From the NCBI RefSeq assembly GCF_003334815.1, contig NZ_QOWO01000030.1: a stretch of 51,530 nucleotides of DNA; one strand, given 5' to 3'. Under the pieces are notes generated by a model. That model saw only the letters and a program-made list of their open reading frames with translations. It had not been told where the DNA came from and did not search any database. Origin of the DNA: Escherichia coli. GTDB lineage: Bacteria > Pseudomonadota > Gammaproteobacteria > Enterobacterales > Enterobacteriaceae. Below, one piece after another: positions 15,514 to 51,530 of this stretch. The position numbers were made by a program, and so were the translations under genes. Position 1 is the stretch's first letter. The number at the start of each line of letters is the position of its first letter.

Positions 15514-15535
15514 GTATACAGATCGTGCGATCTAC

Positions 15536-15544
15536 TGTGGATAA
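15536..15544. promoter_or_regulatory. DnaA box R4 (TGTGGATAA)
   Basis: Exact consensus 9-mer at the mioC-proximal end of oriC. Confidence 0.85.
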
Positions 15545-15715
15545 CTCTGTCAGGAAGCTTGGATCAACCGGTAGTTATCCAAAGAACAACTGTTGTTCAG
15601 TTTTTGAGTTGTGTATAACCCCTCATTCTGATCCCAGCTTATACGGTCCAGGATCACCGATCATTCACAGTTAATGATCCTTTCCAGGTTGTTGATCTTA
15701 AAAGCCGGATCCTTG

Positions 15716-15724
15716 TTATCCACA
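15716..15724. promoter_or_regulatory. DnaA box R1 (TTATCCACA)
   Basis: Exact consensus 9-mer adjacent to the 13-mer region. Confidence 0.85.
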
Positions 15725-15737
15725 GGGCAGTGCGATC

Positions 15738-15781
15738 CTAATAAGAGATCACAATAGAACAGATCTCTAAATAAATAGATC
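15738..15781. repeat. oriC DNA-unwinding element: three tandem AT-rich 13-mers
   Basis: ctaataagagatc / aatagaacagatc / aaataaatagatc, the reverse complements of the canonical GATCTnTTnTTTT 13-mers. Confidence 0.9.
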
Positions 15782-15891
15782 TTCTTTTTAATACCCAGGA
15801 TCCCAGGTCTTTCTCAAGCCGACAAAGTTGAGTAGAATCCACGGCCCGGGCTTCAATCCATTTTCATACCGCGTTATGCGAGGCAATCACC

Positions 15892-46253: not shown

Positions 46254-46270
46254 AATCGATAGCGCGTTAA

Positions 46271-46306
46271 AAACCCGCCATGCATGATTGCTGGCGGGTT
46301 TTTTAT
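46271..46306. terminator. bidirectional terminator between convergent adeP and chrR
   Basis: aaaaacccgcca...tggcgggtttttt: hairpin flanked by A-run and T-run. Confidence 0.75.
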
Positions 46307-46873
46307 TTAGATCTTAACTCGCTGAATAAACTCACCAAATGCGGTCAATTGCCCGGTCAGGTGGTCCAGCGTACCCTGATCAATCACTTCTCCGGTTTGC
46401 GGATCAACTTTGTTCTGAATCACGCCGCCCATAAATTCCGGCTTGTTCATCACCATTGCATCGAGGAAAACCAGAATCTGGCGCAGGTGATACTGACAGC
46501 GCGCGCCGCCAATCACGCCCATTGAGCTGGTCTGAATCAATACCGGTTTACCGGCCAGCGGTTGATCCGGCAGGCGGGAAAGCCAGTCGATGGCATTTTT
46601 CAGCCCACCCGGTACCGAGTAGTTATATTCCGGCGTGACGATCACCACACCGTCAGCCTGACGGATCTGTTCCGCCAGAGCTTCAACCGTTGCTGGAAAA
46701 CCTTCTTCCTGCTGTACGTCAGCGTCATACAAGGGAATGTCGGCAATGGATGGTAACGCATTGACTTCCATGCTCGCCGGAGCAATTTTCGGCAGGGTAC
46801 GTGCAACCATGCCATTAAATGAGCCTTTGCGCAGGCTCCCCAGTAACGTAACCACCTGCAATTTTTCAGACAT
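46307..46873 (-). CDS. chrR: NAD(P)H-dependent FMN reductase / chromate reductase ChrR (YieF)
   Basis: 188-aa ORF; flavodoxin-like NADPH-dependent FMN reductase motif (LLGSLRKGSFN). Confidence 0.9.
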   Translation of the reverse strand: MSEKLQVVTLLGSLRKGSFNGMVARTLPKIAPASMEVNALPSIADIPLYDADVQQEEGFPATVEALAEQIRQADGVVIVTPEYNYSVPGGLKNAIDWLSRLPDQPLAGKPVLIQTSSMGVIGGARCQYHLRQILVFLDAMVMNKPEFMGGVIQNKVDPQTGEVIDQGTLDHLTGQLTAFGEFIQRVKI

Positions 46874-46894
46874 GATGACTCCTGTGGTTGTCTA

Positions 46895-47656
46895 TCAATT
46901 TGGCGAAAAAGCCTTCACGGTAGAGAGTTGGGCAAAACGCATCATCCGGCTGGTAGGATTGTTGGCGCGGCTGTGAATATCCGGCAGGCTTTTCCAGCCG
47001 TGTTTGCCATCTAACTCCCAGACACTGAGCTTTTCAATCGTGGGCGTGACCGCCACGGACCACACCAGCACGTCTTCCGCGTCGCATAACGCTTCTACAT
47101 GATTTACATGAGCACATTTCAGGCGTCCGGCAATGGGCAGCAGCTGCAGATCGCGCGGATCGTCATTCAAAACATCACCGGTTAGTTTTAGCACGCTTCG
47201 GCGCAGCGTGATGAGCTGCGCCCGCGCTTCGTTAGGATCGTTTTGTTTACTGATCCATAGCGATTCATTGCTGGAAAAGGTGTGGTTATCGGGCGCGTGT
47301 GGGCTATGAAACCCGCGCGTCGCACGCTGTAGTTCCATATCGAGGCCACATTCACCTTCGGTTGTTAACGCCACGCCAACCATATTCCCGGCATAGGAAA
47401 TGGAAAACGAAGGCAAATTTTTATCACTGAAAACCGGTTTACCTTTCGGCAGGGTGACGATTTCCGGCAATTCGCCAATGCCATACAGCATGAACATCAG
47501 TTCTGCGAGTAAACCTCTGGACGCCAGAAAACGGCTTTGACGATGAGGGGGAATGTTTCGGGCTTCTTGATGACACTGGGAGGGGAGACGAACAGAAATC
47601 AGATGTCCTTCCGTTAAAATCCCTCGGGCAAAGTGAGTCGCCATTTTTCGCTCCAT
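46895..47656 (-). CDS. yieE: 4'-phosphopantetheinyl transferase superfamily protein YieE
   Basis: 253-aa track ORF; an in-frame Met four codons downstream (MATHFARG) is an alternative start; co-directional with and 21 bp upstream of chrR. Confidence 0.82.
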   Translation of the reverse strand: MERKMATHFARGILTEGHLISVRLPSQCHQEARNIPPHRQSRFLASRGLLAELMFMLYGIGELPEIVTLPKGKPVFSDKNLPSFSISYAGNMVGVALTTEGECGLDMELQRATRGFHSPHAPDNHTFSSNESLWISKQNDPNEARAQLITLRRSVLKLTGDVLNDDPRDLQLLPIAGRLKCAHVNHVEALCDAEDVLVWSVAVTPTIEKLSVWELDGKHGWKSLPDIHSRANNPTSRMMRFAQLSTVKAFSPN

Positions 47657-47800
47657 GCTTAATGGTCCATTATGAATACAAGAGTAATCATTTACTGGAA
47701 TGATGGACAGACTAAAGCGGCTAAAAGTTCGATTCAGACAAGCTTATTACAACTTTTTTACATTTTATTGTGAAATTGGGTCGCGTTTCATACGATTCGG

Positions 47801-51369: not shown

Positions 51370-51530
51370 GTACTGAGAGATCCCCTCATAATTTCCCCAA
51401 AGCGTAACCATGTGTGAATAAATTTTGAGCTAGTAGGGTTGCAGCCACGAGTAAGTCTTCCCTTGTTATTGTGTAGCCAGAATGCCGCAAAACTTCCATG
51501 CCTAAGCGAACTGTTGAGAGTACGTTTCGA

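Follow-up and report, generated by a model that had tools for sequence, protein, structure and literature searches.

YieE of Escherichia coli: a probable catalytically degenerate homologue of the phosphopantetheinyl transferases

Why should Escherichia coli encode, directly upstream of a flavin reductase, a member of the 4'-phosphopantetheinyl transferase (PPTase) family with no carrier-protein gene beside it? The question is raised by yieE in a 51,530-nucleotide stretch of E. coli DNA (RefSeq assembly GCF_003334815.1, contig NZ_QOWO01000030.1), the whole of which is referred to here as the window. An original prediction, made from the sequence, had described two co-directional open reading frames (ORFs) at this locus, yieE followed 21 bp downstream by yieF (also known as chrR), and the list of ORFs confirmed this arrangement (yieE, 46895..47644; yieF, 46307..46873; both minus strand). 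RefSeq names the products "4'-phosphopantetheinyl transferase family protein" and "class I chromate reductase YieF", respectively. The annotation of the window likewise agreed that no annotated acyl or peptidyl carrier protein, nonribosomal peptide synthetase (NRPS), or polyketide synthase (PKS) gene is present. The accompanying remark, that a PPTase lacking a nearby substrate gene is functionally unexplained, describes nothing that would be odd in itself: in strain K-12, AcpS is encoded away from its substrates. The same is true of AcpT (PMC8253772).

From the sequence comparisons and fold prediction detailed below, we propose that YieE is probably a catalytically degenerate PPTase homologue, i.e., a protein that would have kept the two-lobed PPTase fold and lost both the transfer chemistry and the associated activity. 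The premise of a working enzyme merely separated from its substrate gene was left unsupported by a clade-wide replacement of catalytic residues. On the proposed reading the orphan puzzle dissolves, as the lack of a carrier gene beside yieE would follow from the loss of transfer activity.

Fold and ancestry of YieE

YieE is a paralogue of the AcpT-like, Sfp-type (group II) PPTases, and its earlier placement in the PPTase superfamily was upheld by profile homology together with a fold match. The relationship expected to the ACPS/Sfp families held in part: homology to Sfp emerged from a profile that included intermediate sequences, and no match was obtained with the Pfam ACPS model (PF01648), which did not detect E. 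coli YieE even at E ≤ 10. AcpT, used as a control, matched the same model at 3.3e-11, and only 2 of 46 YieE-clade members reached it at E ≤ 0.001. The best family match is to AcpT (E. coli holo-acyl carrier protein [ACP] synthase 2), a clear homologue, through the AcpT model NF007676; this sole NCBIfam match scores 42.1 bits over residues 36–141 only, well below the cut-off of 174. By BLASTP, residues 20–107 of YieE align with AcpT at 34% identity, through the GxDxE strand.

Of 1.84 billion representative proteins scanned, only 296 were relatives of YieE at E ≤ 0.001; they comprise a small full-length clade followed, at identities of 31% or less, by ordinary Sfp-type PPTases of 210–250 residues. 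When 46 YieE-clade sequences were compared by hhalign with 39 AcpT-like relatives plus AcpT itself, the two profiles aligned with a probability of 100% (E 7e-44) across about 205 columns, covering YieE residues 3–209. Outside this aligned region, residues from about 210 to 249 make up a C-terminal extension, about 40 residues long and conserved, that is lacking in AcpT.

Searches of the PDB followed the same pattern. A profile built from the YieE clade only found no PPTase in the PDB; homology to Sfp-type structures became visible only after AcpT-like intermediates had been added, whereupon Sfp (1QR0/4MRT) was matched at E 2e-16 and human AASDHPPT at E 9e-11. Matches to an alarmin release inhibitor, to artificial-intelligence-designed TIM barrels, and to L-asparaginase, which had appeared in single-sequence and clade-only searches, were rejected as spurious. 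An AlphaFold (AF2) model of YieE, built on the intermediate-containing alignment, had a mean predicted local distance difference test score (pLDDT) of 88.4 and a predicted template-modelling score (pTM) of 0.87. Foldseek comparison of this model with the PDB gave 34 matches at E ≤ 1e-3, every one of them an Sfp-type (group II) PPTase (Sfp, AASDHPPT, PptT, PptAb, PcpS, or MuPPT), led by Sfp (4MRT; E 6e-10, template-modelling scores of 0.64/0.70) and including 2C43 at E 1e-8. YieE is thus predicted by AF2 and Foldseek to adopt the two-lobed, pseudo-symmetric alpha/beta fold of the PPTases; the structures closest to the model are Bacillus subtilis Sfp and human AASDHPPT, at sequence identities of only 13–20%.

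Catalytic residues and what they imply

The profile with intermediates pairs YieE with Sfp residues 29–164 and is the source of the residue map used here, in which YieE is numbered in its 249-residue form. Several hallmarks of the active site are retained: the adenine loop G68-K69-P70 (Sfp G74-K75-P76); Asp102 (Sfp D107), the first Mg2+ ligand, located in the sequence GLDME; Glu104 (Sfp E109), the second residue of the GxDxE pair; and Lys153 (Sfp K155), the motif 3 lysine. Others are replaced. Arg149 takes the place of the third Mg2+ ligand (Sfp E151), a position held by Gln in most other genera; Tyr84 replaces the SHS-motif histidine (Sfp H90); and from the same helix face, the equivalents of Sfp F143 and W147 are Arg141 and Ile145, such that motif 3, W(T/S)x(K/R)E(A/S)xxK, keeps its lysine and loses its tryptophan. 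The original prediction had proposed examining the conserved Mg2+-binding residues and had named the absence of catalytic motifs as grounds for abandoning the PPTase assignment. The outcome was divided, with the GxDxE pair present and the equivalents of E151, H90, and W147 all substituted.

These substitutions characterize the clade. Among the best 80 of 196 matching genomes, all GTDB species representatives, a recount of per-locus rows placed Gln at the Sfp E151 site in 66 species, Arg in 10 (including all six Escherichia), His in 4, and Glu in none; at the H90 site, Tyr was found in 80 of 80. Across 127 YieE-clade sequences, the E151 site was occupied by Gln in 102, Arg in 18, and Lys, His, Asn, or Ala in 6, with the lone "Glu" attributable to a misaligned fragment, and the W147 site was Ile, Leu, or Val through most of the clade. 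Fifty more distant relatives presented the canonical state, with Glu kept in 48, His in 44, and Trp in 48. Erosion has proceeded further in Pseudescherichia vulneris, Escherichia sp. ESNIH1, and two Superficieibacter species, as well as in some metagenomic clade members, in which Asp and/or the second Glu is also lost; in these lineages the aligned YieE region is uninterrupted, and yieF is still adjacent where the contig allows.

Two of the lost positions have catalytic roles in Sfp. In the structure of Sfp with coenzyme A (CoA), His90 contacts the CoA phosphate, and in the Sfp and AASDHPPT literature Glu151 is the general base. Glu151 is also supported as an essential Mg2+ ligand: both SchPPT D105A and E151A are inactive in vitro and in vivo, mutants of the middle residue remaining functional (PMC4103896). 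In the survey of Wang et al. (2014), every one of 556 group II PPTases was assigned to the Asp-Xxx-Glu class, the middle residue alone varying; the Mg2+ ligands retained in Sfp and AASDHPPT are the first Asp and the third Glu (PMC4103896). The pattern in YieE is the opposite, with ligands one and two present and the essential third gone. The replacements imply that YieE is most likely unable to move phosphopantetheine from CoA to a carrier protein.

The gene yieE is nonetheless not dead: it has its own sigma70 promoter, transcription together with yieF, a shared terminator, and purifying selection across the Enterobacteriaceae. On the reading we favour, the protein would serve in a non-catalytic, binding capacity: its remodelled and more basic cleft would accommodate either an anionic nucleotide ligand, CoA-like or otherwise, or an acidic partner protein, and its role would be linked loosely to the quinone reductase stress module of YieF. 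A more specific version of this proposal, which we put forward tentatively and consider rather less than likely, would make YieE the founding pseudo-PPTase, a protein that has lost transfer but may still bind CoA/Mg2+ or an acidic carrier-like protein in order to sense or regulate, possibly coupling CoA or acyl-carrier status to the YieF quinone-reductase stress response. A Glu-to-Gln change is a classic substrate-trapping substitution, and the Asp102/Glu104 pair is still in place in 95% of species.

Several observations weigh against the degenerate-homologue reading. Asp102 and Glu104 are kept in 76 of the 80 species (95%), more than a fully unconstrained site predicts, which implies that some Mg2+- or nucleotide-dependent function may persist. 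Metal could still be coordinated by a Gln in place of the Glu, and a compensating acidic residue may lie elsewhere in the cleft. In addition, yieF has been lost in 4 of the 80 species, making the tie of yieE to YieF usual and not obligatory.

The retained residues are what an active enzyme with an unconventional site would build on. Such a PPTase would hold Mg2+ through Asp102, Glu104, and a water molecule or other residue, and would act in trans on AcpP, EntB/EntF, or, in strains carrying such clusters, aryl-polyene ACPs. Its fold and homology to AcpT fit this idea, as do the conservation of Asp102, Glu104, Lys153, and the GKP loop in most species, the frequency with which PPTases work in trans, and the fact that close canonical relatives serve aryl-polyene-type clusters, exemplified by a Rahnella protein (P0284) encoded at the end of a KS/KR/ApeP/DUF3261/MMPL cluster. 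We consider it unlikely, however, for the third-ligand Glu that is essential in tested group II enzymes (PMC4103896) is absent from every YieE-clade species examined, the His-to-Tyr and Trp-to-Ile changes add to the doubt, and an active enzyme would not tolerate the loss of Asp and/or Glu seen in lineages with intact ORFs. E. coli genetics points the same way. Mutants in entD make no enterobactin and acpS is essential, indicating that YieE covers for neither in vivo. For E. coli K-12, Wang et al. (2014) name only entD and acpT as group II PPTase genes (PMC4103896).

The high retention of Asp102/Glu104 despite loss of the canonical Glu could also be taken to mean that the PPTase scaffold has gained a new catalytic activity, on an adenosine diphosphate-containing cofactor and possibly in the service of YieF, for instance by cleaving or transferring part of flavin adenine dinucleotide, nicotinamide adenine dinucleotide (phosphate), or dephospho-CoA. 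The coherent remodelling of one helix face, from F/W/E/K to R/I/R/K in E. coli, would accord with this, as would purifying selection on yieE and the presence of an adjacent flavin mononucleotide (FMN) reductase before the Glu was lost (in the metagenomic locus L091, Glu is present and an FMN_red gene lies downstream). We nevertheless rate it as quite improbable. The former Glu site is unfixed (Q, R, H, K, N, or A) and so is not a new catalytic residue; four species without the Asp/Glu pair still keep both yieE and yieF, and four others keep yieE without yieF. The literature search found no precedent for such an activity, nor do we know of any. At the other extreme, yieE might be a functionless, decaying relic carried upstream of yieF in a shared transcript. 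YieE is indeed the fastest-evolving protein of its neighbourhood (60–66% identity, vs 87–93% for YieF and 91–97% for AdeP), its catalytic residues are eroding, and rare deletion and fusion variants occur. Within Escherichia, however, the ratio of nonsynonymous to synonymous substitution rates for yieE is 0.05–0.14, which is 3–7 times that of yieF (0.02–0.03) and far below neutrality; the tblastn-aligned region is free of stop codons in all 80 species, and 5422 of the 5426 complete E. coli genomes (>99.8%) carry the 1.6-kb yieE–yieF region. Within the clade, about 24 positions do not vary, some of them clade-specific (including H4-F5-A6-R7, W130, Q134, Q143, and W195), and the four species that lost yieF retained yieE. 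A relic is thus highly improbable.

The variants themselves are rare and single-member. In two E. coli proteins (P0011 and P0012), YieE starts only at about residue 50 and is preceded by the N-terminal portion of MdtL or YidZ, and their joints at a shared LM(F/I)ML microhomology imply deletions. A third (P0094) is a 397-residue YieE–YieF fusion from Salmonella enterica subsp. salamae, which we rejected as evidence of functional linkage as it is a single, N-terminally truncated, stop-loss case.

The yieE–yieF locus across species and its transcription

A yieF homologue lies downstream of yieE in 76 of the 80 species, at a distance (between tblastn ends) within about 80 bp in 75 of them and of about 160 bp in the remaining one (L031). 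The four species keeping yieE without yieF (loci L041, L048, L050, and L084) are Enterobacter sp. BIGb0383, Bisph1, and ENT03, and the metagenome-assembled genome UBA3516 (Enterobacteriaceae); in these, adeP is directly downstream of yieE. Beyond the named species, a metagenomic relative (L009) has a yieF homologue 23 bp downstream, and the distant metagenomic relatives P0127, P0128, and P0136 reside on contigs of 1–2.7 kb that are uninformative for context.

Two more distant loci suggest a sequence for these changes. The Serratia marcescens orthologue (L090) occupies the same mnmE...adeP-yieH neighbourhood, is followed by an FMN reductase gene, and carries Tyr, Asp, Glu, Trp, and Gln at the key sites. 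The metagenomic protein P0150 (L091; about 31% identity), with FMN_red downstream, already has the Tyr but retains the Glu and Trp. The changes would likely begin with an AcpT-like PPTase that became linked to yieF, continue with the change of His to Tyr, and then with that of Glu to Gln together with loss of the Trp; Gln to Arg in Escherichia and sporadic loss of Asp/Glu would likely represent later steps. These two loci also contain genes that E. coli lacks. In S. marcescens, yieE is preceded by a gene of the Lys/Orn N-monooxygenase family (L090:4592-5905; the best model is histamine N-monooxygenase, at 258 bits and below its cut-off), and in both loci yieF is followed by a gene for a 350–360-residue protein with a TPR-end domain and weak similarity to PHB-depolymerase/esterase (L090:7532-8584; L091:3122-4204).

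The gene predicted at the yieE locus is real, and its start required correction. The position originally given, 47656, corresponds to an upstream in-frame ATG that opens a 253-residue ORF, and the RefSeq start is at 47644, from which YieE (MATHFAR...) comprises 249 residues. In favour of the latter, all homologues begin MxxHFAR, and the 47644 ATG has a GGAG 6 nt upstream (47654-47651). The upstream ATG (47656-47654) is without a Shine-Dalgarno sequence and would be at +18 of the transcript, given a transcription start site at about 47673. That site is itself estimated from published mutagenesis primers: the -10R primers of Sun et al. 2021 (tgattacTCTtg changed to ...cGCT.../...cTAT...) were mapped onto the window sequence, which located the -10 element TACTCT of the yieE sigma70 promoter at 47681..47686 (minus strand), and the 7-bp spacer stated in that paper would then give the start. 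The resulting 5' untranslated region (47645..47673, minus strand) is about 29 nt long and contains the GGAG Shine-Dalgarno, the non-initiating ATG, and a sigma70-dependent pause site. The promoter has been validated by in vitro transcription, and the leader is one of the model sites for promoter-proximal pausing of the Gre-sensitive kind that depends on sigma70, the backtracked RNA being 17 nt long; compared with a greAB deletion, the wild type has 2.5-fold higher downstream reads (PMC7876045). A promoter-like site at 47791-47762 from a consensus scan was rejected as non-significant and off the published promoter.

Downstream, the 21-bp spacer between the two genes (46874..46894, minus strand) carries the yieF Shine-Dalgarno AGGAG (46883-46879), 5 nt ahead of the yieF ATG. 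Upon inspection of its sequence, neither a promoter nor a terminator signal was evident in this spacer, which fits co-transcription of yieE and yieF. Indeed, the two have been given as an operon, yieEF (PMC2648988), and are co-induced (PMC2270276). In published tables, acid shock raises yieE and yieF together and sigmaE induction raises yieE, which is unmentioned in the main text of Rhodius 2006. Four nt past the yieF stop is a GC-rich hairpin between A and T runs (46269..46303), which acts on both strands as a bidirectional intrinsic terminator between the convergent adeP (plus strand) and yieF (minus strand); the RNA folding energy is -22.6 kcal/mol (z -6.0) for the minus-strand transcript and -23.0 kcal/mol (z -4.3) for that of the plus strand. 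Despite this strength, a consensus terminator scan of the region missed it.

YieF is a protein of 188 residues belonging to the NAD(P)H-dependent FMN reductase family (class I chromate/quinone reductase). It is identical over residues 1–188 to PDB 3SVL chain A, "protein yieF" (E 6e-122), and the SsuE, MsuE, and ArsH FMN reductase models of NCBIfam match it, all below threshold; the protein is a tetramer.

The yieE–yieF region matches that of E. coli K-12 MG1655 at 100% identity. From the rbs operon through tnaB, the window is colinear with the oriC region of K-12, whereby oriC is expected at about 15514-15891, between mioC and mnmG. Its last 158 bases (51373-51530) do not align to MG1655, where the tnaB–tnaA spacer would be expected. 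The junction is covered by only one E. coli genome, in which it is annotated "IS4-like element ISVsa5 family transposase", so that the strain seems to have an IS10/ISVsa5-type insertion just past tnaB.

YieE among known enzymes

Both AcpT and YieE have the two-lobed architecture, the GKP loop, GxDxE, an FSxxE motif, and the motif 3 lysine. In AcpT numbering, YieE differs from it by Tyr in place of His73, Arg or Gln in place of Glu137, and Ile in place of Trp133, apart from the C-terminal extension, the sub-threshold AcpT score, and the missing Pfam match already described. Their genomic settings also differ, as YieE adjoins an FMN reductase and not ACP or aryl-polyene genes, aryl-polyene-type clusters being the known business of AcpT (PMC8253772). 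Relative to Sfp and AASDHPPT, the distinction lies in the Mg2+ ligands, the first and second being kept in YieE and the third absent. YieE shares with pseudoenzymes in general a conserved fold, purifying selection, and the clade-wide loss of an essential catalytic residue, as well as further lineage-specific erosion of the remaining ligands.

The gene yieE, its family label, and YieF are already known. The literature searched yielded no described pseudo-PPTase, no pairing of a PPTase with the word "pseudoenzyme", and no statement that YieE lacks essential catalytic residues; yieE and "phosphopantetheinyl" occurred together there only in transcriptome tables.

The present analysis reveals no new system, and instead corrects a misleading annotation. 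As a core E. coli gene, yieE is labelled a PPTase family protein in databases, and this label, when read as an activity, inflates the PPTase count of E. coli and other Enterobacteriaceae. Inflated inventories could in turn mislead the heterologous expression of NRPS/PKS carriers, the choice of inhibitor targets, and explanations for background phosphopantetheinylation. The question thus moves from which carrier protein YieE might modify to what role a PPTase-shaped, non-transferring protein would play; were a binding or regulatory role to prove true, YieE would, as far as the literature searched extends, be the first described pseudoenzyme of the PPTase superfamily.

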